A stretch of 64,000 nt of DNA from contig MGJB01000015.1 in the NCBI GenBank assembly GCA_001794055.1, forward strand, positions 4,264-68,263. The letters are read 5' to 3'. Position numbers and translations under genes: made by a program. Positions 1 through 56,451 of this stretch are shown here, piece after piece. Numbering within the stretch: the stretch's first letter is position 1; each line of letters begins with the position of its first letter. Below the pieces are notes generated by a model. The model did no database searches. It was not told the origin of the DNA and worked only from the letters and a program-made list of their open reading frames with translations. This DNA comes from Candidatus Yanofskybacteria bacterium RIFCSPHIGHO2_01_FULL_41_26 (lineage in GTDB: Bacteria; Patescibacteriota; Minisyncoccia; 2-02-FULL-40-12; GWA2-44-9).

Positions 1-227
1 TGTCTTAACTGAAAATATCGATGCTTAACATGAAGTCTGTTTGAGCCCGGCTTTTTGGTAGCACCCCTTAATTTAGGAAATAGCTGCCAAAGACGGTTGT
101 CTCCGCCCCTAAAACCCTGTTTGATAGATGCTCCTGCTCGTCCTTTTTGGCCCTTTGTTCCGTGGCCGGAAAAAGTTCCTCTTTTTCCACCTCGTCCGAC
201 GCGTTTAGCCGACTTCCTTTTTGTATT

Positions 228-275
228 TGATTTTAATTCACTTAAGTTCATAAAGTTTGTAAAGTTATAAAGTTC
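228..275. repeat. Tandem ~9-bp repeats (TTNATAAAG x4-5) in ORF-free region downstream of rpsE
   Basis: Sequence aagttcataaagtttgtaaagttataaagttcataaagtaa read directly; no ORF in 1-300. Confidence 0.6.
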
Positions 276-302
276 ATAAAGTAATTTCTTTCTTTAAGAA
301 CT

Positions 303-908
303 TTACGAACTTATTTTACTTTTAACTCGCAATTTCCGTAAAGCGGAAATTGTGGCCATGGCAATATTAACTTTGTTGTTTGTTCTCCTCAAAAGTTTTC
401 CTGTTAATTTGGTAATACCCGAAAGCTTAGCCACAACCCTGACTGGTCCGCCAGCTTTTACTCCTCCTCTGGCCGGTTTTAACAACACAACAGCACTGTT
501 GTATTTAGCTTCAACTTGATAAGGAATTGTTCCGTCTTTAATAAGAACGGTGACTAAATTTTTCTTAGCTTGATTAAAAGCTTTCTGAACTGACTGAGCG
601 ACATCTTTTCCTTTAGCCATTCCGATTCCGACCTTGCCTTTTCCGTCTCCAATAACTATTGTCGCCCTAAAGCTAAACCTCTTTCCACCCTTTGTAACAC
701 GTGAAACTCTGGCAATATCCAAAACTTTCTGGTCATATTCAGATTTAGCCGCAAAACCACCTCGGCCGCCAGATCTCCTTCCGCGTCCTCCAAAACCTCC
801 CCGACCGTTGCCTCTTTGGCTTCCAAATCTTTTTGAAGCTTCTGCACGCGGCGCCGGTGCAATTGGTGCTACGGTTGTGTTTAAATTGTTTGATGTTTGA
901 TTTTCCAT
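303..908 (-). CDS. rpsE: 30S ribosomal protein S5
   Basis: 201 aa; Gly/Arg-rich N-term then conserved S5 core (VSRVTKGGKRFSFRA...GIGMAKGKDV); position after L18 in spc order. Confidence 0.95.
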   Translation of the reverse strand: MENQTSNNLNTTVAPIAPAPRAEASKRFGSQRGNGRGGFGGRGRRSGGRGGFAAKSEYDQKVLDIARVSRVTKGGKRFSFRATIVIGDGKGKVGIGMAKGKDVAQSVQKAFNQAKKNLVTVLIKDGTIPYQVEAKYNSAVVLLKPARGGVKAGGPVRVVAKLSGITKLTGKLLRRTNNKVNIAMATISALRKLRVKSKISS

Positions 909-2574: not shown

Positions 2575-3138
2575 TCACAACTGGAGCGAAGCTCCAGCCG
2601 GTTTTTTAATTGGTAATCCCATTTGTTTTAAAAGCTCAATTCCTTTTTCCCTATTTTTGGCCGTTGTAACCACAGTTACCTCCAGTCCGAATACGTCTTT
2701 CATGTTTTCGTAATTTATCTCCGGAAAAATGCTTGATTCTTTAATACCGAAATTCAAGTTTCCCATTTTATCAAAATTTTTGGCGTCTATCCCCCTAAAA
2801 TCTCTCGATCTTGGAAGAGCAATCGCAATCAATCTGTCCAAAAAATCATACATCCTCTTGCCTCTAAGCGTCACTGCAATTCCAACATTGACTCCTTCTC
2901 GCAACTTGAAACCGGAAATTGATTTCTTGGCTTTTTTGAAAACCGGCTTTTGTCCGACAATAAGCGTCAACTCTTTTGCTATTCTTTCAGCTGTTTTTTC
3001 GTCTTTGCCAAGTCTTCCAATACCGGTATTTACAACGACTTTCTCTATCTTTGGAATTGCCATTACATTCTTAATTCCAAAAGCTTTCTGCATGGCAGGA
3101 ATAACTGTTTTTCTATATTTTTCTTGTAATCTTGGCAT
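2575..3138 (-). CDS. rplE: 50S ribosomal protein L5
   Basis: 187 aa; L5-like (MPRLQEKY..., NYENMKDVFGLEV), operon position. Confidence 0.95.
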   Translation of the reverse strand: MPRLQEKYRKTVIPAMQKAFGIKNVMAIPKIEKVVVNTGIGRLGKDEKTAERIAKELTLIVGQKPVFKKAKKSISGFKLREGVNVGIAVTLRGKRMYDFLDRLIAIALPRSRDFRGIDAKNFDKMGNLNFGIKESSIFPEINYENMKDVFGLEVTVVTTAKNREKGIELLKQMGLPIKKPAGASLQL

Positions 3139-3152
3139 ATAATTACGAGGTA

Positions 3153-3461
3153 TTATTGTACCTCATTTTTACACTTTTTACAAATTCTTACCTTGTTCTC
3201 TCCTTCGAATTTATATCCAATCCTGGTCATTTTTCCGCAGGATTTGCAGACCAAGGCTACGCTCGATGCGCTTACTGCTCTCTCTTTGCTTATAATCTGA
3301 CCCTTCTGACCCTGCTTTTTGGCTCTAACATTCTTTTTTATCAAATTCAAACCTTCGACAACAACTCTATCGATGCTTGGTATAACCATGGAAATCTTTC
3401 CCGTCTTTCCTCGGTCTTTTCCATTCAGCATTATTACATTGTCTCCTTTTCGTAATTTCAT
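3153..3461 (-). CDS. rplX: 50S ribosomal protein L24 with C-terminal zinc-ribbon extension
   Basis: 102 aa; KOW N-term (KGDNVIMLNGKDRGKTGKI) plus C-term CKSCGK...CKKCK four-Cys motif. Confidence 0.92.
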   Translation of the reverse strand: MKLRKGDNVIMLNGKDRGKTGKISMVIPSIDRVVVEGLNLIKKNVRAKKQGQKGQIISKERAVSASSVALVCKSCGKMTRIGYKFEGENKVRICKKCKNEVQ

Positions 3462-3469
3462 AAAGTTGT

Positions 3470-3835
3470 TTATACTAATTCTTCGGCTAGTGACGCTATC
3501 GTGCCATATCCTCTTTCTTTAATTTCTCTTGGTATCGGCCCAAAAATTCTTCCACCCTTTGGCTCTTTTCCGTCTAAAATAACGACCGCATTATCATCAA
3601 ACCTGATATAAGTACCGTCTTTTCTTCGGAATGGTTTTCTTTGTCTGACCACGACTGCCCTTAAAACTTCTTTCTTTTTGACTAGCTTCCTTGGCTCGGC
3701 CACTTTCACCGACACAACGACAATATCTCCAAGTTGGGCATATCGATGTCTTGATCCACCAAGAACCTTAAAGACCCCAACCTTCTTGGCTCCTGAATTA
3801 TCCGCGACATTTACAATTGATCTAAGCTGTAACAT
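3470..3835 (-). CDS. rplN: 50S ribosomal protein L14
   Basis: 121 aa; MLQLRSIVNVADNSGAKK is L14 N-terminus. Confidence 0.96.
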   Translation of the reverse strand: MLQLRSIVNVADNSGAKKVGVFKVLGGSRHRYAQLGDIVVVSVKVAEPRKLVKKKEVLRAVVVRQRKPFRRKDGTYIRFDDNAVVILDGKEPKGGRIFGPIPREIKERGYGTIASLAEELV

Positions 3836-3841
3836 AAAAAA

Positions 3842-4117
3842 TTAATTAGATTTCTCTTTAGAATCTGATGCCACTTTTCCGGTAACAATCCATCTTTTTT
3901 CTTTGGATATTGGTCTGATTTCTTTGATTAAAACACGATCTCCGGTGCGATATTCATTCTCCTCGTCATGAGCTTTATATTTTGCTGAAATCTTAAAATA
4001 TTTTTTATATTTTGGATGTTTTTTCAAATTTGAAACCTTAACTACCACAGTTTTATTCATCTTGTCCGACGTAATTATCCCTTTAAGAACTCTGGTTTTT
4101 TTATTTTGTGTTTCCAT
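3842..4117 (-). CDS. rpsQ: 30S ribosomal protein S17
   Basis: 91 aa; S17-like OB-fold sequence, operon position. Confidence 0.92.
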
Positions 4118-4134
4118 ATTTAGAAATTAAAAAT

Positions 4135-4320
4135 TTAGGATTTTGACTTTAAAAAAGTCAAAATCCTTGCTATTTCTTTTTTGGTTTTTTTAATCTGACT
4201 ATAATCTTTCAATCTTTTTTCGCCAAGTTCAAAGTTAAATTGCAAAAGCTTCGCTTTCAAATCTTTCAGTATCATGCTCATTTCTTCTACCGTCTTGTTT
4301 TGTAAATCAATGTTTTTCAT
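4135..4320 (-). CDS. rpmC: 50S ribosomal protein L29
   Basis: 61 aa helical, operon position between L16 and S17. Confidence 0.88.
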   Translation of the reverse strand: MKNIDLQNKTVEEMSMILKDLKAKLLQFNFELGEKRLKDYSQIKKTKKEIARILTFLKSKS

Positions 4321-4321
4321 A

Positions 4322-4729
4322 TTACCGTTTTACAATTCTTGTTTTGATTGCAAGTTTATGCGAGCCAAGCGTTAAAGCTTTTTTAGCCTGATCTTCGGGC
4401 AATCCGTCTATTTCAAAAATTATCTTTCCGGCCTCAACCACCGCCACGAAATGGTCCAAGGTTCCAGCTCCGCCGCCCATACCAAGCTCTCCGCCATGAT
4501 TAGTACGAGGCTTATCTGGAAATACGCGCATCCAAATTTTGCCGCCTCTTTGAACAAATCTCGTCATAACACGCCTAGCCGATTCCAGTTGGTTAGCTTT
4601 TATCCAACTTGATTCTTCGGCTTTCAAGCCAAAATTACCAAAACTTAAATACGTGCCTCGGGTTGCTTTGGCTTTTAATCTTCCTTTGTGAACTTTGGGA
4701 TGTTTTACTCGTGCTGGTTGCATGATCAA
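4322..4729 (-). CDS. rplP: 50S ribosomal protein L16
   Basis: 135 aa; L16/L10e sequence (KGRLKAKATRG...GGKIWMRVFPDKP). Confidence 0.95.
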   Translation of the reverse strand: MIMQPARVKHPKVHKGRLKAKATRGTYLSFGNFGLKAEESSWIKANQLESARRVMTRFVQRGGKIWMRVFPDKPRTNHGGELGMGGGAGTLDHFVAVVEAGKIIFEIDGLPEDQAKKALTLGSHKLAIKTRIVKR

Positions 4730-4756
4730 AATTTCGAAATATCGATATATCGAAAA

Positions 4757-5389
4757 TTAAAATTTTTCTCCTTTATATATCCAAACTTTTACTCCTACTG
4801 TTCCGTATGTAGTGTGAGCAGTAGCTTTCGCATAATCAATATCTGCTCTCAATGTTTGTAGCGGTAAATTTCCTTCTTCTAAATGTTCCGATCGGGCTAT
4901 TTCGGCTCCATCTAAGCGTCCGCCGAGTAAAATCTTAGCGCCCTTAACCTGTTTGGAAGCTATAATTTTAGCCAAAGTCTGTTTCATTACCCTTCTGAAA
5001 GGAATCCTTTTTTCTATCTGGTCAACTATGGATTCGGCCATTATCATGGCGGATGCTTCCGGGTTTTTTACCTCTTGGATCTCAATCCTGATAGAAACTT
5101 TGTTTTTAAGAAGTTTCTGAATGGCATTTTTTAACTCCTCAACTCCGGTGCCTCCCCGCCCTATCAACAATCCTGGTCTGGCGGTAAAAATAATCACATT
5201 CAAGGCATCAGTGCCTCGCTCCAGTTCAACCCTATCTACACTAGTGCTCTTCAATTTTTTATTTAAAAAACCCCTGACAGCAACATCATCTTTCAGATAG
5301 GGCACGTATTTGCGTCCGCCAAACCAATGGGACGCCCAGTCCTTTTGAATTCCCGTCCTGAATGATATCGGTGATATTTTTTGTCCCAT
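4757..5389 (-). CDS. rpsC: 30S ribosomal protein S3
   Basis: 210 aa; KH domain N-term, GQKISPISFR start typical of S3. Confidence 0.95.
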   Translation of the reverse strand: MGQKISPISFRTGIQKDWASHWFGGRKYVPYLKDDVAVRGFLNKKLKSTSVDRVELERGTDALNVIIFTARPGLLIGRGGTGVEELKNAIQKLLKNKVSIRIEIQEVKNPEASAMIMAESIVDQIEKRIPFRRVMKQTLAKIIASKQVKGAKILLGGRLDGAEIARSEHLEEGNLPLQTLRADIDYAKATAHTTYGTVGVKVWIYKGEKF

Positions 5390-5390
5390 A

Positions 5391-5897
5391 TTAAATAACC
5401 TTTCTTCTAAATAATCTTTTTCCGAGATTGTTCAGAGTATTACCTTTCTTTCCTAATTCAGTTTCAACTTCTGGTTTCTTTACCCGAGGTTCAACCTCGG
5501 AACTTCTTTGAGGTTGAACCTCCTTATTCTTCTTCTCCGAAGCTTTTCTCTTTAATCCAATAACCCTTTCACCTAAAACAAGGCGGACCCTGCTTGTTTT
5601 CTTTTGAATTTCTCCAGCTCTTCCTTGAGCTTTAGGCATATATCTTTTTAATTTAATTCCTTCATCAACAATAAACGTCTTGATGTAAAGATTGTCTTTA
5701 ATCATACTAAAGTTATTTTCCGCATTAGCAATAGCAGAATTCAATAATTTTATTAGTGGCAAAACCGGTCTCTTCATCAAAAATTCCATCTGATTCAGAA
5801 CATAAACGACATCCTTGCCTTTAAGCAAATTGGTAACAGCCCGGACTTTTCTCGGTGATATTCTCAATCCGTTCAATTGTGCCTTAACTTCTGCCAT
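5391..5897 (-). CDS. rplV: 50S ribosomal protein L22 with ~50 aa basic C-terminal extension
   Basis: 168 aa; L22 core followed by K/E-rich tail. Confidence 0.9.
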   Translation of the reverse strand: MAEVKAQLNGLRISPRKVRAVTNLLKGKDVVYVLNQMEFLMKRPVLPLIKLLNSAIANAENNFSMIKDNLYIKTFIVDEGIKLKRYMPKAQGRAGEIQKKTSRVRLVLGERVIGLKRKASEKKNKEVQPQRSSEVEPRVKKPEVETELGKKGNTLNNLGKRLFRRKVI

Positions 5898-5906
5898 ATT
5901 TGGATA

Positions 5907-6257
5907 TTATTTTGGTTTAACGGCTTCTGTGGCCGGCGCTTTCGCTGCCTGAGCAGCATCAATTTCTTTCTGCTTCTGGGCGGCCTCTAGCTCTCTCTGC
6001 ATTCTTCCTCCATGTCTTACAAATTTTCTAGTCAGAGAAAACTCGCCCAGTTTATGTCCAACCATGTCTTCCGATACAAAAACAGGAACATGAACTCTGC
6101 CATTATGGACGCCAAAAGTAAATCCTATCATTTCCGGAATAATTGTGCAGTCTCTGGCCCATGTTTTAATAATCGTCTTATCGCCCAATCTTAACTTGCT
6201 TACCTTTTTCAGTAATTTTTCATCTACATATGGCCCTTTTTTAAGACTTCTGCTCAT
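5907..6257 (-). CDS. rpsS: 30S ribosomal protein S19
   Basis: True start taken at internal [10 protein letters not shown] (ATG at 6255-6257 immediately after L2 stop); ORF track start at 6404 overlaps rplB. Confidence 0.9.
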
Positions 6258-6258
6258 A

Positions 6259-7083
6259 TTATTTAATTCTTCTCTTAATAAATTTACTTGATTTTTTATT
6301 TTTGTTTCTAGTTTTTCTTCCACCGGTAATTTTTCCGTATGCAGTCTTTGGTCGCCTCGTTCCTCGGCCCTGTCTGCCTTCTCCGCCCCCATATGGATGA
6401 TCAACCGGATTCATAGCCGTACCTCTTACTTTAGGCCTTCTACCAAGCCATCGAGATTTGCCGGCTTTGCCCAAAACTATCGTGTCGTGTTCAGAATTAG
6501 AAACCTGACCTATTGAAGCATAAGAGTCGCCTAAAATCATCCTCGTTTCCGATGAAGGCATTACCAGCTGAACAAAACCCCCTTCGCTTGCCAGAACCAT
6601 GGCACCAGAACCTGCCGATCTAACAATCCTTCCGCCCTGTCCGGGAAATAATTCCACGTTATGAACCATAGAACCCTGGGGAATATTCTTTAGTTTCATT
6701 CTGTTGCCAGGCCTTATCGGTGCCTCAACTGCAGTAATTACCGTATCTCCAACCCTTAATTCCTGTGGAGCCAATATATATCTTTTTTCTCCATCGGCAA
6801 AATTAATCCTGGCGATTCTTGACGTTCGATTCGGATCGTATTCCAAAGCCGCAACTTTTCCCGGGACATTCAATTTGTCTGTTTGTTTGAAATCTACATC
6901 TCTGTACAACCTCTTGGCGCCTCCGCCTTTTCGAGGACCGGTAACTCTTCCTCTGTTGTTTCTGCCATATGATTTAGTAAATCCCCATTTGTGCGACTTT
7001 AAAGGTTCAATCTTGGTTAATTGGGAAAAATCATATCCTTTCATTCCTCTTCTGGAAGGTGTTGTTGGTTTATATATTTTCAT
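6259..7083 (-). CDS. rplB: 50S ribosomal protein L2
   Basis: 274 aa; L2 signature regions ([30 protein letters not shown]). Confidence 0.96.
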
Positions 7084-7087
7084 GATT

Positions 7088-7522
7088 TTATGGTTTCGCC
7101 TGTTCTATTGTCTGGCCTTTTTCTAAGCCTACGATTGCTTTTTTAAATTCCGATCTGAATCCGGGATGACGACCAAGGTCTCTTCTTTTTCTAGGCATAT
7201 TTAAAACTTTAACGCCCTTAACTTTAACATTAAATAGTTTCTCAACTTGTTTTCTTATCTGGCTCTTGTTAGAATTTCTGAAAACCTTAAAAACATATTG
7301 ATTAAACCCATTCAACAAAGAAGCTTTTTCGCTAACATAAAAATTCTTTAAAACCCTGTAAGCTTCAGCATTTCCCATAACCGGCAAAACGGGCACTGAC
7401 TCCTTAATTTCTTCTTTAATAACAACCTCTTCTTTTTTTGCAGGTTTTGTTTTTTTGGCTTGATTTTCCTGCTCTCGACTAGGCTCGCTTTTGGCGGCTT
7501 TTTTGAAAGGATTTAATAACAT
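7088..7522 (-). CDS. rplW: 50S ribosomal protein L23 (possible K/E-rich N-terminal extension or later start at MGNAEAYRVL)
   Basis: C-terminal 95 aa match L23; N-terminal 48 aa low-complexity Lys-rich. Confidence 0.88.
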   Translation of the reverse strand: MLLNPFKKAAKSEPSREQENQAKKTKPAKKEEVVIKEEIKESVPVLPVMGNAEAYRVLKNFYVSEKASLLNGFNQYVFKVFRNSNKSQIRKQVEKLFNVKVKGVKVLNMPRKRRDLGRHPGFRSEFKKAIVGLEKGQTIEQAKP

Positions 7523-7523
7523 A

Positions 7524-8183
7524 TTATTTATTGAATGTTTTATTCAAAGAATCTAAAGAATCTTTAACTAAAACTAGGTATTTATAGGAAAGAATTTCCA
7601 AAGGATTCAAATTTCTGGCTTCTACGGCTGAAAAGTTGGGTAAGTTTTTTGACGATCTTTTTATCTTATCTTCCATTGACGGAACTACAAGCAATACAGT
7701 CGATTTTTTACCTGTCTGACCGGCAGGCAGGCCCATAAGACTTGAAAAATTTTTAAATATTCCTGCCATTTCTTTTGTCTTTGCATTTTCCAAACTGACA
7801 TTGTCCAAGACAAAGAGTTGGTTGTCTCTGGCTTTTGAAGACAAAGTCATAAACAATGCCTTTCGCGCCATCTTTTTGTTAATTTTTTTCTTAAAATTTC
7901 TTTCTTTGGTCGGCCCAAAAGTTGCTCCTCCACCTTTCCATATCGGTGAACGAATGGAAGCATGTCTAGCTCGGCCGGTACCTTTTTGTTTCCAGGGCTT
8001 TTTACCTCCACCCCTAACCTCACCTCGGCCCTTAGCATGAGCAATAACCTGTCTCTTGTTGGACATTTGAGACGTTACAATCTGATGGACTAAGTCTTTG
8101 TTCATTTCTAAATTAAAAATCCTATCAGGCAAGTCAACCTTTCCAATGTTTTCAGCTTTTTGGTTGTATAAGATTGCTTCCAT
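7524..8183 (-). CDS. rplD: 50S ribosomal protein L4
   Basis: 219 aa; L4-like (GGGKKPWKQKGTGRAR), operon position. Confidence 0.94.
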   Translation of the reverse strand: MEAILYNQKAENIGKVDLPDRIFNLEMNKDLVHQIVTSQMSNKRQVIAHAKGRGEVRGGGKKPWKQKGTGRARHASIRSPIWKGGGATFGPTKERNFKKKINKKMARKALFMTLSSKARDNQLFVLDNVSLENAKTKEMAGIFKNFSSLMGLPAGQTGKKSTVLLVVPSMEDKIKRSSKNLPNFSAVEARNLNPLEILSYKYLVLVKDSLDSLNKTFNK

Positions 8184-8185
8184 TT

Positions 8186-8818
8186 TTATTGTGATTGAAT
8201 TATTAATAATTGTCCTCTGTTTCCGGGAACCGCACCCTTAACCGCAAGCAATCCGTTTTTAGCATCAACTCTCACGATTTGTAATCCTCTTGTTGTTACT
8301 TTATCAGAACCCATTCGTCCGGCCATTCTCATTCCTTTCAATGTATGCTGGGGGAATCTTTGGCCGATTGATCCTCCGTGTCTTGCAACATGATGATGTC
8401 CGTGACTGTGAGGCATACCTGAAAAACCATGTCTTTTCATAACCCCCTGAAAACCTTTTCCTTTTGACATGCCCGTAATTTTAACTTTGTCTCCGATAGC
8501 AAAAATAGAAACATCAAGCTTGTCTCCCACCTTCGCTGAAACAGCTTCGGCGGGCAATCCAACTTTTCCGCCAATTCTGAATTCTTTCAGATGCTGGAAA
8601 TTGCCGAGATTTCTAAAGTGTCCTCTTTGGGGTTTATTTATATTTTTAATTTTCTTGGTTCCCGTTCCCACTTGAACCGCTTCGTAGCCGTCTTTATCTT
8701 TAGTTCTAACTTGAGTCACAACATTCGATTCAATTTCCACAACTGTAACCGGGACGACTTTTCCGTCTTCCTCAAAAACCTGCGTCATTCCCAATTTTTT
8801 ACCTAATATGAATTTCAT
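8186..8818 (-). CDS. rplC: 50S ribosomal protein L3
   Basis: 210 aa; L3 motifs (GMTQVFEEDGKVVPVTVVE, KGKGFQGVMKRHGF). Confidence 0.95.
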   Translation of the reverse strand: MKFILGKKLGMTQVFEEDGKVVPVTVVEIESNVVTQVRTKDKDGYEAVQVGTGTKKIKNINKPQRGHFRNLGNFQHLKEFRIGGKVGLPAEAVSAKVGDKLDVSIFAIGDKVKITGMSKGKGFQGVMKRHGFSGMPHSHGHHHVARHGGSIGQRFPQHTLKGMRMAGRMGSDKVTTRGLQIVRVDAKNGLLAVKGAVPGNRGQLLIIQSQ

Positions 8819-8869
8819 GATTGGTTAGCAAAGCGTTTGTCATTGAAAACATATCAGTCCTTAGACACG

Positions 8870-8960
8870 TAGAATTTCCCAGCGAGAAATTCTACTCGGC
8901 TTCGGCTCGCTCATCCCTCACTGCGTTCGGGATACCTTGCCCGCTCGCCTGCAGATGGTC
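8870..8960 (-). repeat. Family-A GC-rich two-hairpin repeat (copy 1, inverted orientation)
   Basis: Reverse complement reads gaccatctgcaggcgagcgggcaagg-[hairpin atccc/gggat]-gagcgagccgaagccgag-[hairpin tagaatttc/gaaattcta]; same architecture at 14087 and 33990. Confidence 0.75.
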
Positions 8961-9176
8961 TATAGACTGACATGTTTTCAATTCCATAAATTTCCAACAA
9001 TAAAACCCAGATTTAGCTGGGGCTCATGTGTCCTGCTAAATTTATTTAACTTATTCGATTGTGATTTTTCTTAAAACCACTTATTTCAATTAAGGTTTTA
9101 ACACGGCAAGTGAATTTTTACAAACCGGTCCCTTCGACAAGCTCAGGGTTAACCGGATAAATTCTACTGTCTATAT

Positions 9177-9256
9177 TACCACCGCTTTTAGCGGGGCCCC
9201 GCCCAAGGCGGTGGCTACCTTATTCCTCTCCACTGTTTCCAATGAAGAGAGTAAAG
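9177..9256. repeat. Family-B structured element (two short hairpins + truncated long hairpin), copy A
   Basis: accaccgcttttagcggggccccgcccaaggcggtggctaccttattcctctc...; paralogous to 9797-9896. Confidence 0.7.
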
Positions 9257-9268
9257 AAATAATTTTGA

Positions 9269-9472
9269 TTAAAGTACTTCCAGGAAACTCCTTGCTTCTT
9301 TTAAAATCGCTTGTGCTTTTTTTAACTTTTCTATTCCGCCTTCTTGAATTGGCTCCGTTCCCTTTGTAGCTCTTTGCAACGATTGCTCAACAACTTTAAC
9401 ATCTTCTCTTATCTGAGCGACTATGTTTTCTCCTAAATATTCTTCTCTTTCAATTTTTGGTTCTTGTTCCAT
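9269..9472 (-). CDS. Hypothetical small charged helical protein (67 aa)
   Basis: ORF only; E/K-rich, no recognised domain. Confidence 0.4.
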   Translation of the reverse strand: MEQEPKIEREEYLGENIVAQIREDVKVVEQSLQRATKGTEPIQEGGIEKLKKAQAILKEARSFLEVL

Positions 9473-9548
9473 AGTTTTTTATTTAATGTATTAACACTTT
9501 ATTTCTTTCCACCTAAATAATAAAAAGAAAGCAATAATGTTCTAATCC

Positions 9549-9782
9549 TTACAAATTTTTGGTTAATTCTTCAATCTTTTTAAGTCTGTTAACCATATGA
9601 GCTTTTATCTCTCTTACCTCCTCGGAATCCACATCTTTTCCCTCTTTAAGTGTTGCAATTAATAAATCGCTATCTTTCCCAAAACTGGCCACTTCCTGAT
9701 CTATAATCCCCCTGCTTGTTTCACAATTTCTGATTTGCTCTTGTTTATCTGATATTAAATCTTTTTTCTTTTCTCTGTTCAT
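9549..9782 (-). CDS. Hypothetical small charged protein (77 aa)
   Basis: ORF only; 13-nt tandem duplication of start region (atgaacagagaac x2) just upstream. Confidence 0.4.
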   Translation of the reverse strand: MNREKKKDLISDKQEQIRNCETSRGIIDQEVASFGKDSDLLIATLKEGKDVDSEEVREIKAHMVNRLKKIEELTKNL

Positions 9783-9796
9783 GTTCTCTGTTCATA

Positions 9797-9896
9797 TTAC
9801 CACCGTTTTTAACGGGGCCCCGCCAAAGGCGGTGGCTACCTTATTCTCTCGTCCTAGTGAGTTCTATCGAACTAAGGCGAGAAGTAAGGGGGTAAG
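9797..9896. repeat. Family-B structured element, copy B (two hairpins + full long hairpin)
   Basis: accaccgtttttaacggggccccgccaaaggcggtggctaccttattctctcgtcctagtgagttctatcgaactaaggcgagaagtaagggggtaag; hairpin 1 covaries vs copy A (ccgc/gcgg -> ccgt/acgg). Confidence 0.75.
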
Positions 9897-10190
9897 TTAT
9901 TTTTCTGTCTGTGTAAGTTTGGCTACCTCTCTAAGAGATTCGTTTGCAGAATATACCTGATCATTATCTATTATTTTAGCAACTTCTTTTAAGATGACAC
10001 CACTAAACTTTATAGCTCCCACATCCTCTTTTTTTATTCCCGATACTGCCTGGGATAGTTCCTTTAATTCCTTAACCCTTGCCTCAAGTTTGGCTATTGA
10101 TTCGGCTATTGCCTCGTTACCCTCTTTAAACTCTCTGGCATCTTTTTGTTCAACCGATTCTTGTACTATTGTTGGATTTTCTATACTCAT
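9897..10190 (-). CDS. Hypothetical small protein starting MSIENPT (97 aa), paralog of 10572..10826
   Basis: Shares N-terminal 7 aa, upstream leader and downstream hairpin with 10572..10826; middle diverged. Confidence 0.45.
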   Translation of the reverse strand: MSIENPTIVQESVEQKDAREFKEGNEAIAESIAKLEARVKELKELSQAVSGIKKEDVGAIKFSGVILKEVAKIIDNDQVYSANESLREVAKLTQTEK

Positions 10191-10202
10191 GTTTTTATAT
10201 AA

Positions 10203-10262
10203 TTTACATTTTTAACTCTATATCGACCCCTGATGGCAGATTCAAGTTCATAAGAGCATCAA
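10203..10262 (-). pseudogene. Duplicated fragment encoding the last 20 codons of S10 ([20 protein letters not shown])
   Basis: Translation identical to rpsJ C-terminus at 10847-10909 with 9 nucleotide differences, all synonymous. Confidence 0.8.
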
Positions 10263-10472
10263 TTATTTTGACGCTATATTTAACGCGTCCCAAACTTTCT
10301 TCATTTGGACTTTAAGCTGGTCAACTTCCGCGCGAACATCAAGCTTTTTCTCAACTTCGTCAAATCGTCTGGAAACCATGCCTGCTAAATTAGCAACCTC
10401 ATCTTTAAGGTCTTCTTTAGTGGCCAATTTGCCTAATTGTTTGTCAAAATATTCTTTGGTAAGGTCTGACAT
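10263..10472 (-). CDS. Hypothetical small coiled-coil protein (69 aa)
   Basis: ORF only; heptad-like K/E/L pattern; stop overlaps start of duplicated S10 tail. Confidence 0.4.
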   Translation of the reverse strand: MSDLTKEYFDKQLGKLATKEDLKDEVANLAGMVSRRFDEVEKKLDVRAEVDQLKVQMKKVWDALNIASK

Positions 10473-10512
10473 GGTGGTTAAATATTATCTTGTTTAAACT
10501 GTTTTGTCTATC

Positions 10513-10570
10513 ACCTTATTCTCTCGTCCTAGTGAGTTCTATCGAACTAAGGCGAGAAGTAAGGGGGTAA
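10513..10570. repeat. Family-B long hairpin only, copy C
   Basis: accttattctctcgtcctagtgagttctatcgaactaaggcgagaagtaagggggtaa identical to part of copy B. Confidence 0.75.
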
Positions 10571-10571
10571 T

Positions 10572-10826
10572 TTATTTTTCAACAACTTCACCCAATAAAT
10601 TCGATGACTCTTCTATTAAATTTGCTGCTTGGCTCATACTATCGTTAATGCGCCCCAACTTAACAAGATCCTGTTCTGATAAATTTTCAAAATCACCCTT
10701 ATCAAAGATTTCTTTTAGGCGACTTAAGCAGGCCCTATTGCGATCAATTCTCAAAACCATGTCTCCTCTAAGCCTTTCACTCAAGTTAGTTTCTACTATT
10801 TTTTGTGTTGGATTTTCTATGCTCAT
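10572..10826 (-). CDS. Hypothetical small protein starting MSIENPT (84 aa)
   Basis: See 9897..10190; leader upstream overlaps true rpsJ 3' end. Confidence 0.45.
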   Translation of the reverse strand: MSIENPTQKIVETNLSERLRGDMVLRIDRNRACLSRLKEIFDKGDFENLSEQDLVKLGRINDSMSQAANLIEESSNLLGEVVEK

Positions 10827-10846
10827 ATTTTTATTTTCTATTAAAT

Positions 10847-11173
10847 TTACATTTTTAATTCTATATCCACACCTGATGGTAAATTTAGATTCATCAATGC
10901 GTCTATAATCTTCGGTGTCGGTGAATCTATATCTATGATTCTCTTGTGGGTACGCATTTCAAACTGCTCTCTAGAATTCTTGTCAATGAATGCCGACCGA
11001 TTTACTGTATACTTGGCAATCTCTGTCGGCAATGGCACAGGTCCAATCGGATGTCCGCCATATCTTTCAATGGTTTCAACAATCTGGGCAGCGGACTTGT
11101 CTATGATCTTATTGTCATAAGCCCGGAGCTTAATCCGTATTCTCTGTTTTATTTCTGTCGTTTTTTTAGCCAT
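10847..11173 (-). CDS. rpsJ: 30S ribosomal protein S10
   Basis: S10 core ([22 protein letters not shown]...); start placed at [14 protein letters not shown] rather than upstream MFFSSK. Confidence 0.93.
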
Positions 11174-11194
11174 TTTACTTGAAAAGAACATTTT

Positions 11195-11221
11195 GAAGCC
11201 CCGACTACCTGTCGGGGCTTC
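11195..11221. other. Perfect 11-bp stem hairpin in tuf-rpsJ spacer
   Basis: gaagccccgac-tacct-gtcggggcttc read directly. Confidence 0.7.
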
Positions 11222-11224
11222 AGT

Positions 11225-12427
11225 TTATTTATTAATTTTGGTCACGGCTCCGGCGCCAACAGTCTTACCACCTTCTCTGATGGCAAATCTCTGCTTTTCT
11301 TCCATGGCGATAGGGGCAATCAATTGAACTTTCAAATTTGCAGTATCTCCCGGCATGACCATTTCAGTTCCTTCCGGCAATAAGACTTCTCCGGTAACAT
11401 CGGTGGTTCGGAAATAGAATTGAGGTTTGTAACCCTTGAAGAATGGGGTATGTCTGCCACCTTCTTCTTTTGTTAAAACATATATTTCTGCCTCAAAATC
11501 GGTATGCGGGGTAATCGTACCCGGCTTGGCAAGCACTTGGCCTCTTTCTATGTCTTCTTTCTTGGTACCTCTCAAAAGTATTCCGGCATTGTCTCCGGCC
11601 AAACCTTCGTCTAATTGCTTATTAAACATTTCGATACCGGTGACAACAGTCTTCGCTGTCGGTTTAATTCCAACTATTTCAATTTCTTCGTTTAATTTAA
11701 CTTTCCCTCTTTCAATTCTTCCGGTTACAACAGTGCCTCTTCCTTCAATTGAAAAGATGTCTTCAATAGGCATAAGGAAGGGTTTATCGGTATCTCGGAC
11801 CGGATCCGGAAAGAAAGTATCCATTGCATTCATCAATTCCTTGATCGGCTTGGCATATTGATCATCTTTTGATTTAGATTCAAGGGCTTTCAATCCAGAA
11901 CCTCTGATAATCGGGGTTTTATCTCCGGGGAACTGATATTTATTCAAGAGCTCTCTGATTTCGGCTTCAACCAAATCAACCATTTCCGGATCATCAACCA
12001 TATCCACCTTGTTGAGGAATACGATTATATTAGGAACGCCAACCTGTCTGGCAAGCAAAATGTGCTCTCTTGTTTGAGGCATCGGGCCATCAGTGGCAGC
12101 GACAACCAATACAGCTCCATCCATCTGGGCAGCACCCGTGATCATATTTTTAATGTAATCAGCGTGGCCAGGAGCATCAACATGAGCGTAGTGGCGCTTG
12201 GGTGTCTCGTACTCGGAGTGGTGTAAGGCAATTGTAATACCTCTGGCTTTTTCTTCAGGAGCATTATCAATCTGATCTACTCCTTCCTCTCGGGCAGAAT
12301 AACCCTCGTCCTTCATTAAATTTAATACATGCAAAATACCCGCCGTTAGCGTAGTTTTACCGTGGTCAACGTGACCGATTGTGCCGACATTCAAGTGCAG
12401 CTTGTTTCTTTCAAATTTGCCTGCCAT
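11225..12427 (-). CDS. tuf: Elongation factor Tu
   Basis: 400 aa; [22 protein letters not shown] GTPase motifs. Confidence 0.98.
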
Positions 12428-55017: not shown

Positions 55018-55371
55018 TCAGAAAAAGTTGTTCCAGATTGCTTTGACTATATAAAGTCCAATAAGCAGAGTCGACATCATAAGAAGATAAAGTCCCAAAG
55101 ACAAAACACCTCTTTTATCATCTGCCAGCGTTGCCCCTTGTAATTTTCCAACAATGATAAGGGCTAGACTGACGATTGCCACAATGTATAAAGTAAGACC
55201 TACCTCTGGTGAATACATGTTGCTGTTGCAACTGGAAAAGGGCTTTATGCCTCTAGGAACCATAAAACCCGCTACCAGGTGCAACCTTTCGGTCGCAATA
55301 TGTGGGTTTCCCCACATAACGCAGTGCATGCCCTGATAACGGGATTTATATGCACTGCGATTTGATGCCAT
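55018..55371 (-). CDS. Hypothetical membrane protein (117 aa) flanked by ~30-nt direct repeats
   Basis: Repeats attataaccaa...tctgggcatcagaaaa at 54996-55026 and 55419-55472. Confidence 0.45.
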   Translation of the reverse strand: MASNRSAYKSRYQGMHCVMWGNPHIATERLHLVAGFMVPRGIKPFSSCNSNMYSPEVGLTLYIVAIVSLALIIVGKLQGATLADDKRGVLSLGLYLLMMSTLLIGLYIVKAIWNNFF

Positions 55372-56451
55372 GCCCCACAGTATCTTGTCGGGTTGTAGGC
55401 GGTTAAATTGTTAAATACATTATAACCAAATAGGGTAATTTTTCAATGAGTGGAATCTGGGCATCAGAAAATAAAATACTTGAACTTATTGCCCAAAAAT
55501 GTTATAATGTAAGAGTAGGCTTCTGGGAATACTCCCAAGGGGTCTGTGAGAACTCAAAAACGATAGTAGGTTGCACTAGCCCATCAGAGTTTCATTGGTT
55601 AAGCACTGATTGCTAGTATTATTTCTCCCATTGGGTTAGGCAAAAATCCAATGAAACTCCCCAGTGAGAGGAATAATGAAAGTAATCAGTGTTTTTATTT
55701 GGTTCAGCAAGGGTTCTGATGAAGATAAATTAATATTCCAAAATAGAGCAATCGAGCAGGGCAACAGTTCAACTACTGACCCTGGAAACTAAGGAGCATA
55801 AGACCTTACTACAATCCTTAGGGCGTGTTTTATAGGGTTTTGAGCAGAGAGGACTACAGATGAGAAACTCTCAAAGGCGGTATCGGGCACCTATCGCCAA
55901 GACTTGAAATAAAAGGCGGCAAAATGGAATGCTGGTTAGCCAGTAATTCAAATTAGCAAACTTATATAGTTACTAAAGCGAATCTGCAGTAGGCACACAC
56001 GACATTAAAGAAGGAGTGATGTGTGGGGCAGGATAAGGAGGAAACTACAAAGCATCTGATTATATTATTTAATTATTTTAATTCTGCATGACGACAGTAT
56101 AGGATTGGCATCTGGAATGTGGGCTTTTTTAAGAGCTGGACATGCCCGAGTCGCTTCGCAGGCTCCAGCCCTGAAGCGAAGCCCTACGAGGGCAGTCAGC
56201 GAGGACGTGTCCGAGATGAGACAGCCCGCCACATGTAGAGGGCGGCTTTTATATCACGACTCAACCTTATGCTGACGACATACTACCATTTGGAGTTTAA
56301 CTACTAGAACAAAACCTATCATAGGTTGCGAAATGTATGCCCAATATGGCTACTACTATAAACCTCGTATAAACAAAGAAAATAAGCGCATTTTTACTGA
56401 GTTTCTTCCGTAATATTGGGTTGTCATCTATTTGAATAGTTTCTTGGTGAG

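Follow-up and report, generated by a model that had tools for sequence, protein, structure and literature searches.

Few gene orders in bacteria are as conserved as that of the S10 cluster, on which the phylogenomic marker sets for CPR bacteria are based. In a 64,000-nt stretch of a Candidatus Yanofskybacteria contig (the window, analysed here at its full length), tuf, rpsJ and rplC follow one another on the minus strand, with a gap of 2,028 nt (10846-8819) between rpsJ and rplC. What does this insert carry, and how did it come to lie inside such a cluster? A preliminary description had read it as a tandemly duplicated cassette with conserved ends and a divergent middle, and had suggested either a function at the RNA level or diversifying selection.

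A 2-kb insert in the S10 cluster

As described earlier, rpsJ and rplC are separated by five small same-strand ORFs of 67-97 aa, here called A1, B, A2, C and D (Table 1). Genes within about 3-4 kb encode EF-Tu, S10, L3, L4, L23, L2 and S19, plus proteins of 232 and 102 aa with no Pfam match. The S10 protein shows 68-96% amino acid identity across 80 relatives. The last ~66 nt of rpsJ are the first copy of an S10 3' tail that recurs in the gap.

The 2-kb insertion is real and is not an assembly artefact, because independent contigs from several samples agree. At least five independently assembled contigs (L001-L005; 10-87 kb, different samples, two naming schemes, scaffold_ and k141_) span the gap with identical full architecture, and contig L097 covers B-A2-C-D at 99.9% identity to the window. 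At least four others (L006-L009) hold only parts of the gap. If the metagenome-assembled genome contained a collapsed or chimeric repeat, that would account for the contigs that stop at the repeated hairpin (L006 and L008) and for JGI contig L107, which is joined to unrelated sequence within A2; against the five long contigs and L097, we give this explanation a negligible probability.

Table 1. Features of the rpsJ-rplC region, in the direction of transcription, followed by the repeats (positions in the window).
Feature	Position	Strand	Description
tuf	12427-11225	minus	precedes rpsJ
rpsJ	11173-10847	minus	ribosomal protein S10, functional gene; Pfam Ribosomal_S10 on identical gene in L001
ORF A1	10826-10572	minus	84 aa, MSIENPT...EK*; orphan; begins 20 nt past rpsJ stop
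Leader helix P1 copy 1 (Ha1)	10571-10513	minus	R1 match 37.9 bits; breaks off after ...GAAUAAGGU
ORF B	10472-10263	minus	69 aa; conserved Parcubacteria small coiled-coil family, LATKEDL motif
Pseudo-tail	10204-10269	minus	rpsJ 3' end, probably foreign and captured; adjoins stop codon of B; no start
ORF A2	10190-9897	minus	97 aa, MSIENPT...EK*; orphan; all-helical by prediction
Truncated second leader copy	9896-9783	minus	P1 copy 2 (9839-9896), Hb (9800-9835), ~17 nt linker (TAATATGAACAGAGAAC); R1 29 bits
ORF C	9782-9549	minus	77 aa; chimeric
ORF D	9472-9269	minus	67 aa, MEQEPKIE...; bears nucleotide-conserved 5' module
Complete putative rpsJ-rplC leader RNA	9262-9000	minus	P1 copy 3 (9215-9262), Hb (9179-9214), then P2 to terminator-like hairpin
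Complete leader, after Hb		minus	GUAGAAUUUAUCCGG / P2, UUUGUAAAAAUUCAC, CUUAAUU, GUGGUUUU, terminator-like hairpin CCCAGCUAAAUCUGGG + U-run (9021-9006)
Long-stem multibranched element	8985-8840	minus	145 nt; inserted between leader terminator and rplC start codon
rplC	8818-8186	minus	ribosomal protein L3, downstream anchor of variable region; Pfam Ribosomal_L3 on identical gene
Repeat, rpsJ 3' end + spacer	10192-10269 vs 10835-10912		78 nt, 77% identical
Repeat, start codon region + 7 codons	10170-10198 vs 10806-10834		29 nt, 93%
Repeat, last two codons + stop + hairpin	9838-9905 vs 10513-10580		68 nt, 99%
Repeat, GC-rich palindrome Hb	9167-9225 vs 9788-9846		59 nt, 92%

A putative leader RNA upstream of rplC

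The long hairpin repeated in the insert is helix P1, the first helix of a structured RNA of ~240 nt that lies between rpsJ and rplC in about 40 Parcubacteria. In the window, as in 40 related loci, the element is found on the gene strand after the rpsJ stop and before the rplC start. These 40 were matched by covariance model R1 (38 of the 80 relatives selected by rpsJ, plus L093 and L098), once per locus except in L098 and always on the gene strand inside the gap; all three R1 matches in the window also fall in the gap. The window thus holds three P1 copies, two of them truncated and the first two 99% identical to each other. The relatives hold one each, except for the two of L098, where a degenerate P1 homologue sits at the same place as P1 copy 1 of the window.

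A fold covariance analysis, which the preliminary description had proposed, supports the helix. Paired cells make up 89.9-90.2% of P1 versus 41-57% when the partner strand is slid, the covariation score is 0.58 versus 0.11-0.18 in the slid controls, and both sides have changed in 116-155 cells versus 17-44, counts that are not independent events because the compared species are related. The initial alignment and a model-fitted alignment of 42 sequences gave the same picture; in the initial one, 89.9% of cells pair versus 42-53% with a slid partner, and 116 cells have changed on both sides versus 17-36. Compensatory changes are found in P2 and in the pre-terminator pairings as well, and the fold of region 8819-9268 has a z-score of -6.9. 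A function at the RNA level is therefore upheld at the 3' end of the cassette, where the hairpin is a covarying helix kept across about 40 genomes.

The aligned basal gaps have in common P1, AAUAAGGUAGUAAU, GUAGUAUUUAUCCGG, UAAAAAU, CUUAAUU, GUGGUUU and a GC hairpin with a U-run ~10-20 nt before the rplC ATG. The RNA thus runs from P1 through a variable linker, P2 and conserved single-stranded stretches to a terminator-like hairpin. The terminator-like site of the window (9021-9006) matches this consensus, such sites over the scanned region being as frequent as shuffles predict, and it is separated from rplC by the 145-nt element. That element has 25-nt inverted arms (z = -6.5) and no Rfam match; the single other copy seen lies at the same site in L037, with 5 compensatory pairs.

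No Rfam 15 family (4,227 families, gathering scores, whole window) matched in the region. At E <= 10 over 8700-11300 none fell on the elements, and the only matches were chance ones to unrelated families below half of their gathering scores. Nothing on the locus emerged from a search of publications on CPR, the S10 operon and r-protein leaders. Within the window both P1 and Hb are confined to the gap, which rules them out as dispersed repeats there. Judged by covariation and position, the RNA is a well-supported, apparently undescribed structure and a putative leader of rplC, and we infer that it may act as an attenuator responsive to a ribosomal protein. It would then be a candidate autoregulatory leader in organisms about whose regulation almost nothing is known.

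Small ORFs of the insert

All five ORFs look coding. Their codon-usage scores are +0.11 to +0.25 in frame, where real genes have a mean of +0.215 (sd 0.078), and fall below zero in the two other frames; A1 scores +0.107 in frame versus -0.33 and -0.59 off frame, and A2 scores +0.25 in frame. When the A1 and A2 proteins are compared, MSIENPT alone aligns. Their interiors have no residual similarity at the nucleotide level (z = -1.1), and at the protein level 79% of shuffles score equally well. The picture of conserved cassette ends around a divergent middle therefore holds, with the interiors at shuffle level.

Searches for homologues set the ORFs apart. An exhaustive HMMER search of 1.84 billion representatives returned for A1 only itself and low-complexity or repetitive coiled-coil noise, A2 found only itself among 5.8 billion proteins, and D found itself and one 90%-identical variant. 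A metagenome scan for ATGAGYATHGARAAYCCAACA yielded 30 loci, of which the sole related one was L107, from the same strain; the others were chance matches, for example sharing the MSIENPT start only. Pfam, PHROGs and PADLOC gave sub-threshold noise on the five ORFs. The single-sequence AF2 model of A2 has three helices and a disordered N-terminus (pLDDT 70), and its pTM of 0.34 is too low to support a fold search.

There are 67 homologues of B, and this family carries 1-4 copies of LATKEDL/IK between conserved helical ends. Members reside in the rpsJ-rplC gap of L014, L025, L033, L090 and L093, and none was found in viral contigs. Omega for B is 0.10-0.11 against L095 and L096. Its AF2 model (pLDDT 85) is a helix, a break at the KLATKED motif and a long helix, and a PDB profile search gave weak matches to 5apz and 7o92 (E = 0.005-0.2), with generic coiled coils scoring alike. 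In C, the C-terminal ~50 aa are homologous to ORF C' of L098 from window position 9707 onward, with omega 0.29 over the shared half, and the first ~25 codons are specific to the window. Omega for D is about 0.6, from 10 changes only. Ordinary conserved proteins in relatives, which the preliminary description held to count against its reading, are found for B (omega about 0.1) and in part for C; A1, A2 and D are orphans. These orphan small proteins are sited where expression at ribosomal-protein levels would be expected.

At the 5' end of gap ORFs we identified a start module, AAAACC-ATG-GAA-CAA-GAA-CCA-AAA, conserved at the nucleotide level. Over its 5' 25-39 nt, D matches gap ORFs of L010, L014, L016, L025, L027 and L037, and also of L093, at 84-100% identity. 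The density of GAACCAAAA is 0.35 per kb in gaps versus 0.005 per kb in the flanking 618 kb, which are mostly highly expressed translation genes. This is an enrichment of about 70-fold, with codon choice beyond what the amino acids require, and a site-specific mechanism may lie behind the conservation. The same densities rule out a general SD-less 'A-rich start' as the explanation of the module.

A second rpsJ end in the gap

The 'leader aatttacatttttaaNtctatatc' of the preliminary description turns out to be rpsJ coding sequence: its reverse complement, GATATAGANTTAAAAATGTAAATT, spells the final rpsJ codons D-I-E-L-K-M-stop. The unit of rpsJ 3' end, MSIENPT ORF and hairpin does occur twice, as repeat alignment confirms, with spacings of 621-675 nt between repeats. 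The repeat patterns are absent elsewhere in the window, and shuffles predict 0.

Translation of the second rpsJ end, the pseudo-tail, gives 21 residues identical to the real S10 C-terminus, with no frameshift or in-frame stop in the 21 codons. At the nucleotide level it is 74% identical to the real rpsJ end (26% of bases differ), with 14 synonymous versus 1 non-synonymous change, and rpsJ ends from other lineages match it at 80-87%. Among the 80 relatives there is no second rpsJ-tail copy. Because the differences are essentially all synonymous, which a local copy without coding function could not produce, the tail probably diverged inside a working rpsJ elsewhere and was then imported. The cassette parts also lack a single clock, since the hairpins are 99% and the tails 74% identical.

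Variation of the junction among relatives

In 75 relatives that have both genes, the rpsJ-rplC gap ranges from 2 to 4,488 nt. Its cargo comprises orphan small acidic ORFs, and genes for DUF3800 + HNH + DUF2726, HNH or Schlafen/AlbA_2 proteins; HNH genes lie in the gap of L057 and L060. The gap of L016 holds a toxin-antitoxin-like pair, the toxin of which exceeds Pfam's cutoff for ParE by a narrow margin, and that of L044 an antitoxin ORF 88% identical to its L016 counterpart beside a truncated toxin ORF. Gap-ORF subfamilies show 44-79% amino acid identity between species, and one D-type ORF is frameshifted in L093. Compared with L016, the long-stem-type P1 is 92% and the D start 97% identical, versus 71-77% for tuf, rpsJ and rplC. 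The modules at the two boundaries of the slot thus exceed the adjacent essential genes in conservation, which speaks for lateral movement of modules, as does the uneven identity to L098 described next.

The sister haplotype L098 is 69% identical to the window on the left (P1-B) and 85-92% on the right (C-D-leader). A stretch of 121 nt in L098 corresponds to 567 nt of the window, and B is followed directly by C', without the A2 segment. On these alignments the rpsJ-rplC junction is to be regarded as a recombination hotspot with lineage-specific cargo in one CPR clade.

Origin of the insert

We propose, with a probability of about 70%, that the locus joins a conserved leader RNA, a recombinogenic slot and a mosaic insert with an imported A2 segment. 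The slot between the rpsJ stop codon and P1 would be permissive and highly recombinogenic, its cargo differing by lineage, and the 2-kb insert would be a mosaic that arose as diverged versions of a single locus recombined. Window and L098 would share a backbone rpsJ-X-P1-B-C-D-P1-Hb-leader-rplC. A foreign segment of ~570 nt (about 10274-9708), consisting of [rpsJ 3' end - A2 - P1 - Hb - linker - new C start], would have come into it from a related lineage with A2 directly after rpsJ. The 99% P1 identity would most simply reflect gene conversion following import, or both A cassettes could have come from one recent source. The import would have come about by homologous plus illegitimate recombination after DNA uptake, or by repair stimulated by a homing endonuclease. 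The cassette ends would look conserved because they are constrained, as rpsJ coding sequence, nucleotide-conserved start module and P1 helix, and the middles would have nothing in common because the slot is taken by two distinct orphan genes, A1 and A2, either fast-evolving or unrelated. No donor with A2 was found and searches returned no A1 or A2 homologues, so the case for import is built on the tail and L098. The captured, synonymously diverged rpsJ end would be direct sequence evidence that Yanofskybacteria lineages exchange DNA. Contigs in several assemblies end at the pseudo-rpsJ fragment and the repeated P1 copies, which could mislead the extraction of marker genes.

The preliminary description had an in-situ tandem duplication of [rpsJ tail-ORF-hairpin], after which diversifying selection erased the interior and the ends were kept. 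The similar repeat spacings and the shared MSIENPT start and EK* end of A1 and A2 are what this would produce. The 14 to 1 excess of synonymous changes in a non-coding tail copy, itself free of frameshifts and in-frame stops, is not, and the clocks contradict one another (tail 74%, start 93%, hairpin 99%, interior as shuffles). L098 passes from B directly to C' without such a unit, and B has no counterpart in the second unit. We therefore set tandem duplication aside as very improbable, and with it the diversifying selection, given interiors indistinguishable from shuffles, a tail with synonymous changes only and parts without a common clock. There is likewise only a slim chance that the ORF-plus-hairpin units are mobile cassettes (integron-like attC, MITE or IS-type ends), with the hairpin as a DNA recombination site and the start module as the other boundary. 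The modular layout of ORF then hairpin, the gap enrichment and codon choice of GAACCAAAA, modules more conserved than the flanking essential genes, and the HNH nucleases and ParE toxin-antitoxin-like pair in relatives' gaps would all suit mobility. Against it, the hairpin occurs once per matched locus except in L098 (two) and the window (three), in fixed place and orientation, running into the leader, and is absent from the rest of the window; there is no integrase or transposase within about 3-4 kb and no GTTRRRY/RYYYAAC core by inspection; and the covariation fits an RNA helix of free sequence, unlike a protein-recognised site.

The ORFs might instead matter through their translation and not their product, a ribosome stopping 0-12 nt before P1 controlling leader folding and read-through into the rplC operon. 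This would explain why conservation is limited to the start module and the stop/P1 junction. In the examples inspected, the preceding stop (of rpsJ or of the last inserted ORF) adjoins the P1 5' strand, and the start module kept at the nucleotide level, the orphan, fast-changing interiors and the frameshifted D-type ORF of L093 agree with such a role. We nevertheless judge it unlikely: purifying selection acts on B and C over their whole length, gap-ORF subfamilies are conserved between species, the ORFs, with 60-100 codons, far exceed the known regulatory leader peptides in length, and A1 and A2 precede truncated leader copies without a terminator. A bolder extension of the recombinogenic slot, speculative and on balance doubtful, is that it serves as an 'expression socket' bounded by AAAACC-AUG-GAA-CAA-GAA-CCA-AAA (or a GAA-AAU-CCA-ACA variant) and the stop/P1 junction, through which small orphan proteins co-expressed stoichiometrically with ribosomal proteins would be swapped, shuffled or even originated. 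If so, the S10 operon would harbour a cassette system that works without an integrase, or a nursery of de novo genes, and the products would possibly act on the ribosome.

Comparison with known systems

In E. coli, L4 causes termination at a hairpin of the S10 leader. Like r-protein leaders, the RNA described here is covarying and structured, lies directly upstream of rplC-rplD..., and ends in a GC hairpin and U-run near the start codon. Unlike the E. coli S10 leader, it sits inside the cluster between rpsJ and rplC and not upstream of rpsJ; unlike r-protein leaders, it fits none of the 4,227 Rfam families, and its linker tolerates hairpin insertions (Hb). Leaders of this kind are bound by a protein encoded downstream, often by mimicry of the site on rRNA; the window carries no rRNA of this organism. 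The B family may resemble the alpha/beta coiled-coil ('beta-layer', A-T-K-x-D motif) proteins, to which we take 5apz (presumably Tcar0761) and 7o92 (presumably a Giovannonibacteria fragment) to belong: its motif occurs in 1-4 copies and the AF2 helix breaks at the motif, with weak profile matches (E = 0.005-0.2). Generic coiled coils match B about equally.

Integron cassette arrays share with the insert short promoterless ORFs in one orientation, each with an imperfect hairpin, downstream of a strong transcription unit. They differ in that here no integrase lies within ~3-4 kb, no attC core is present (by inspection, none of the RYYYAAC ... GTTRRRY type flanks the three hairpins, whose conserved ends are UUAUU-CUUAC ... 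AAUAAGGUAGUAAU), and the hairpin is an RNA helix that belongs to a larger conserved RNA and is present once in almost all relatives. MITE or IS-type elements would be dispersed in many copies with terminal inverted repeats and target duplications; over the 64-kb window, P1 and Hb are confined to the gap, and of the related loci all but one have a single P1, though the 145-nt element does carry 25-nt inverted arms. In intronless homing, free-standing HNH or GIY-YIG endonuclease genes lie between conserved phage genes and co-convert their flanks. Hypervariable islands are exchanged by homologous recombination in the conserved genes that flank them. Unlike such islands and intronless homing, the insert lies within one of the most syntenic bacterial operons and has no nuclease gene in the window, and in most of the lineages sampled the cargo consists of tiny orphan ORFs. 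Like them, it has conserved anchors (rpsJ and leader/rplC) around cargo unrelated between lineages, a mosaic of unequal divergence, a probably captured foreign end of a flanking gene, and HNH genes at the same junction in two relatives.

Organization of the rpsJ-rplC gap

The gap between rpsJ and rplC contains five small ORFs, all on the gene strand, which in order from rpsJ to rplC are A1 (84 aa), B (69 aa), A2 (97 aa), C (77 aa), and D (67 aa). The repeat search bore out the cassette that had been noted between the two ribosomal protein genes in the preliminary description. A 78-nt repeat (77% identity) carries the last ~66 nt of rpsJ and a short spacer, the start-codon region and first seven codons of A1 and A2 (MSIENPT) are repeated at 93%, and a 68-nt block that takes in the two final codons, the stop, and a hairpin of ~20 bp (Ha) is repeated at 99%. 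A GC-rich palindrome, Hb, is present in two copies (92%), the second of which is preceded by a third Ha-like hairpin of different sequence. None of these repeat patterns was found elsewhere in the window, where none is expected by chance, and A1 and A2 show no similarity beyond MSIENPT and the terminal EK. The earlier observation itself was accurate; the sequence named as a leader is the reverse complement of the last rpsJ codons. The gap architecture is real and not a misassembly, because contigs assembled independently from several samples agree on it exactly, and five of them cover the whole gap.

In a JGI metagenome contig from this strain (L107), full identity extends through A2 residue 75, after which the contig enters an unrelated gene whose translation looks, by eye, like a solute-binding protein; the junction is either a chimeric assembly or a true rearrangement variant. 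Between tuf and rpsJ lies a perfect 12-13-bp GC-rich hairpin with T-runs on its flanks, which looks like a bidirectional terminator. If it terminates, transcription of rpsJ may be independent of tuf or depend on read-through. A weak sigma-70-like promoter match (TAGACA-17-TAATAT) occurs downstream of the truncated first hairpin copy and upstream of B, and promoter-like matches across the region are no commoner than in shuffles. The window also holds a full-length match to the Rfam LOOT RNA (RF03000; 66.5 bits, gathering score 46.4).

Coordinates of features in the window and at related loci
Locus	Feature	Coordinates	Strand	Remarks
window	tuf	12427-11225	-
window	GC-rich hairpin	11193-11223	both	between tuf and rpsJ
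window	rpsJ	11173-10847	-
window	rpsJ-rplC gap	10846-8819		2,028 nt
window	promoter-like match	10482-10510	-
window	segment at site of shorter L098 sequence	about 10274-9708		567 nt
window	78-nt repeat	10192-10269
window	second copy of rpsJ 3' end (pseudo-tail)	10204-10269
window	complete leader, third P1 copy	9262-9000
window	NNNAGC pairing	~9044-9012		alignment columns 319-325 / 342-348
window	terminator-like hairpin	9021-9006		third leader copy
window	long-stem element	8840-8985	-	145 nt; multibranched top, 25-nt inverted arms; between leader terminator and rplC ATG
window	rplC	8818-8186	-	then rplD, rplW, rplB
window	LOOT RNA match	55281-55401	-
L107	match through A2, then unrelated gene	1861-2406
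L096	B homologue	533-742		directly after rplK (L11)
L091	B homologue	3001-3183		directly before infB (IF-2)
L095	B homologue	135-344		beside translation genes
L016	toxin-antitoxin-like pair	5343-5787		in gap
L044	antitoxin ORF, truncated toxin ORF	5345-5687		in gap
L057	DUF3800, HNH, DUF2726	5572-8358		in gap
L060	HNH	2739-5224		in gap
L088	Schlafen/AlbA_2 protein	5464-6834		in gap
L093	frameshifted D-type ORF	3288-3475		L010 ORF homologue
L025	block aaaagattggtgccggggtggcgtg	~2750-2798
L027	block aaaagattggtgccggggtggcgtg	~4175-4220
L037	block aaaagattggtgccggggtggcgtg	~5485-5530
L010	block ctcgaacttgac.caacga.cggcgtcaga	~5455-5497
L015	block ctcgaacttgac.caacga.cggcgtcaga	~5462-5505

A conserved leader RNA upstream of rplC

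Alignment of the shortest gaps among relatives yielded a conserved element of ~240 nt that begins at the stop codon of the preceding gene. Its first helix, P1, is the repeated hairpin Ha and has the form UUAUU-CUUAC-(variable stem-loop)-GARAAUAAGGUAGUAAU. It is followed by a short linker, the site of extra GC-rich hairpins in some lineages (Hb in the window; others in L093, L030, and L042), and by a second helix, P2, formed by GUAGUAUUUAUCCGG...CCGG around a variable hairpin. Further 3' lie the conserved UUUGUAAAAAUNCAC, CUUAAUU, and GUGGUUU, and the leader ends in a GC hairpin and then a U-run 10-20 nt upstream of the rplC ATG. The covariation analysis proposed in the preliminary description strongly supported P1 as a conserved helix. 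Pairing holds for 89.9% of cells in a 30-sequence MAFFT alignment as compared to 42-53% with slid partners, and changes on both sides occur in 116 cells (17-36 in slid controls); the covariation score is 0.58 (slid controls, 0.11-0.18), and a model-based alignment of 42 sequences agrees.

A covariance model of P1 and the linker gave 42 matches at 40 loci, namely L093, the sister haplotype L098, and 38 of the 80 relatives selected by rpsJ. All of the matches lie in the gap on the gene strand, one per locus save in L098. In the 64-kb window there are exactly three matches, all within the gap, and only the third belongs to a complete leader, copies 1 and 2 being truncated; its terminator-like hairpin was assigned by consensus match only. 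The leader matched no Rfam family. From its position and anatomy, we infer a candidate ribosomal-protein leader or attenuator for rplC and later genes, and the odds that it would be an attenuator responding to a ribosomal protein seem to us even. Within the leader, an upstream NNNAGC base-pairs with the terminator hairpin at its 5' stem and loop. Three of the pairs show 3-5 compensatory changes among 12 species, and the interaction could be a pseudoknot or an anti-terminator alternative.

The long-stem element that separates the leader from rplC has a strong fold (z = -6.5) and no Rfam match. It is common to L037 only, where it occupies the same site with 5 compensatory pairs, and L011 has another GC-rich insert at this position. 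The element may be either an RNA element or a small mobile insertion.

Origin of the second cassette

The second copy of the rpsJ 3' end (the pseudo-tail) has no start codon and adjoins the B stop codon, and its translation is exactly the 21-residue C-terminus of the real S10. At the nucleotide level 26% of bases differ from the real tail, with 14 synonymous and about 1 non-synonymous differences. Since such nearly synonymous-only divergence needs a working rpsJ, the pseudo-tail would have acquired its differences in another lineage, and its arrival would be recent. Its identity is 80-87% to rpsJ ends from several other Yanofskybacteria as compared to 74-77% to the window's own.

The sister haplotype L098, from the same aquifer, has the order X-P1*-B'-C'-D'-P1-Hb-leader and carries 121 nt at the site of the window's 567 nt. 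The window-specific segment consists of the rpsJ pseudo-tail, A2, P1, Hb, 17 nt of linker, and a new 5' end for C, a composition which implies that the donor had A2 directly between rpsJ and the leader, the slot of A1 in the window. By reading, both junctions show short homology: the ...AAAATAA of B joins the ...AAAATAATT of rpsJ, and ATGAACAGAGAA is repeated where the linker joins C. The tail and the comparison with L098 indicate that the second cassette was imported and not duplicated in place. The divergences of its parts are incompatible (tail 74%, start 93%, P1 99%, interior random), and L098 has a short-stem P1* at the place of the window's long-stem Ha1, so that gene conversion between the two 99% identical P1 copies after import is the simplest account and would explain their near identity.

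Mosaicism is general at the locus. The identity of L098 to the window is 69% in the left part (P1-B) and 85-92% in the right part (C-D-leader). The related locus L016 matches the long-stem P1 at 92% and the D start at 97%, as compared to only 71-77% for tuf, rpsJ, and rplC.

The gap ORFs and their start module

Codon usage scored +0.11 to +0.25 per codon in frame for 5/5 ORFs and was negative in both other frames (80-codon chunks of real genes: mean +0.215, sd 0.078). B, with 67 homologues in Parcubacteria and an omega of about 0.10, is by these measures an ordinary conserved protein. It is usually the middle gene of rpsJ-X-B-Y-leader-rplC (L090, L093, L094, L025, and L033). The family has conserved ends and 1-4 LATKEDL/IK repeats in the middle; an AF2 model of B (pLDDT 85) consists of a helix, a break, and a long helix, and among the weak PDB profile matches of B are two beta-layer coiled-coil constructs, 5apz and 7o92. 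Other B homologues adjoin other translation genes (L096, L091, L095), which suggests that the small coiled-coil gene has settled more than once next to highly expressed translation genes or moves together with them.

The omega of 0.29 for C over the half in common with L098 points to purifying selection across that half, and for D omega is about 0.6, from ten changes only. Homologue searches with A1, A2, and D found none beyond their own strain, and a metagenome scan for the MSIENPT start matched only the same strain. A2 carries no annotation beyond that of a Candidatus Yanofskybacteria (Parcubacteria/CPR) hypothetical protein from the Rifle aquifer, and its low-confidence prediction is all-helical with a disordered N-terminus. 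The gap ORFs look like genuine small proteins that are dispensable and evolve fast.

Across species, most gap ORFs start with M-(x)-E-Q-(E/L)-P-K-(I/T)-E, M-S-E-P-T-E-P-K, or M-(KF/SI)-E-N-P-T. We found that this start module is conserved as nucleotides from about -10 to +25, as AAUAAAAAACC-AUG-GAA-CAA-GAA-CCA-AAA-AUU-GAA. The Pro codon is CCA in 13/14 species as compared to 24% across the tuf, rpsJ, rplC, and rplD genes that these genomes carry (p about 1e-7), a significance that is overstated, as are the other codon-choice p-values, since species are not independent samples; GAA (11/11) and AAA (11/11) compare with backgrounds of 67% and 60%. In addition, GAACCAAAA is about 70-fold commoner in gaps than in the flanking 618 kb. 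Together, the codon choice and this enrichment rule out a general start-region bias of highly expressed genes. By reading, no Shine-Dalgarno sequence is present at the genes of the locus. Candidate roles for the module are a specialised element of translation initiation, an N-terminal tag that is constrained and overlaps an RNA constraint, and a boundary of recombination.

The gap across relatives

Among 80 species-level relatives retrieved with an S10 query, rpsJ-rplC spacing is 2-72 nt in the most distant ones, as in most bacteria. Gaps of ~250 nt are typical within Yanofskybacteria and close Parcubacteria; lengths of 400-1,400 nt are frequent there, and the largest reach 3.5-4.5 kb. Its cargo varies by lineage, small acidic helical ORFs being one type. 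Other gaps carry a toxin-antitoxin-like pair with a toxin that narrowly exceeds the Pfam cutoff for ParE (L016; the L044 antitoxin ORF is 88% identical), HNH genes (L057 and L060), or a Schlafen/AlbA_2 protein (L088), predicted accessory or defence-type functions within the S10 cluster. This lineage-specific cargo argues that the junction is a clade-wide insertion/recombination hotspot and not peculiar to the source genome.

The gap ORFs of relatives form small subfamilies (44-79% identity) and include domain mosaics, as in L017, where the N-terminal part is L014-like and the C-terminal part L015-like. A frameshifted D-type ORF in the Rifle relative L093 indicates that the small genes can decay. 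Two conserved non-coding blocks, one recurring in three relatives and the other in two, each occupy the stretch from the rpsJ stop to the first gap ORF. The window has neither of them, and they may represent further RNA modules of the locus.

A probable recombinational mosaic and its alternatives

We favor, with a probability of roughly 0.7, a recombinational mosaic at a clade-wide hotspot, in which the conserved ends of the cassettes are constrained pieces of the locus (rpsJ, the start module, and P1) and the divergent middles are unrelated occupants of one slot. The earlier reading of tandem duplication and diversifying selection is thereby replaced by insertion of a xenologous allele next to a conserved leader RNA. 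Duplication in situ, contradicted both by the synonymous-only tail and by L098, now seems very improbable, and hardly more can be said for an integron-, MITE-, or IS-like cassette system: the hairpin is single-copy at a fixed site in almost all relatives, its covariation is of the RNA type, attC cores are lacking, and the 3-4 kb or so around the locus holds no recombinase. Stop codons that adjoin P1 would fit ORFs acting by translation coupling or in a uORF-like manner, but with B and C under purifying selection and ORF lengths that do not fit, this too is unlikely. Least credible is an assembly artefact, which the independent contigs exclude.

Under the mosaic reading, alleles could be imported when DNA is taken up and then recombines, homologously and illegitimately, with rpsJ, P1, or the leader as the anchor. 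Since HNH genes occupy the gap in L057 and L060, nuclease-stimulated repair could be an alternative route. The ingredients are of known kinds, namely r-protein leaders, recombination hotspots with conserved genes on either side, orphan small ORFs, and coiled-coil proteins. Compared with Rfam 15 and a literature search, what appears to be new is the rpsJ-rplC leader RNA, the hypervariable cargo slot in the S10 cluster of a CPR clade, and the nucleotide-conserved start module.
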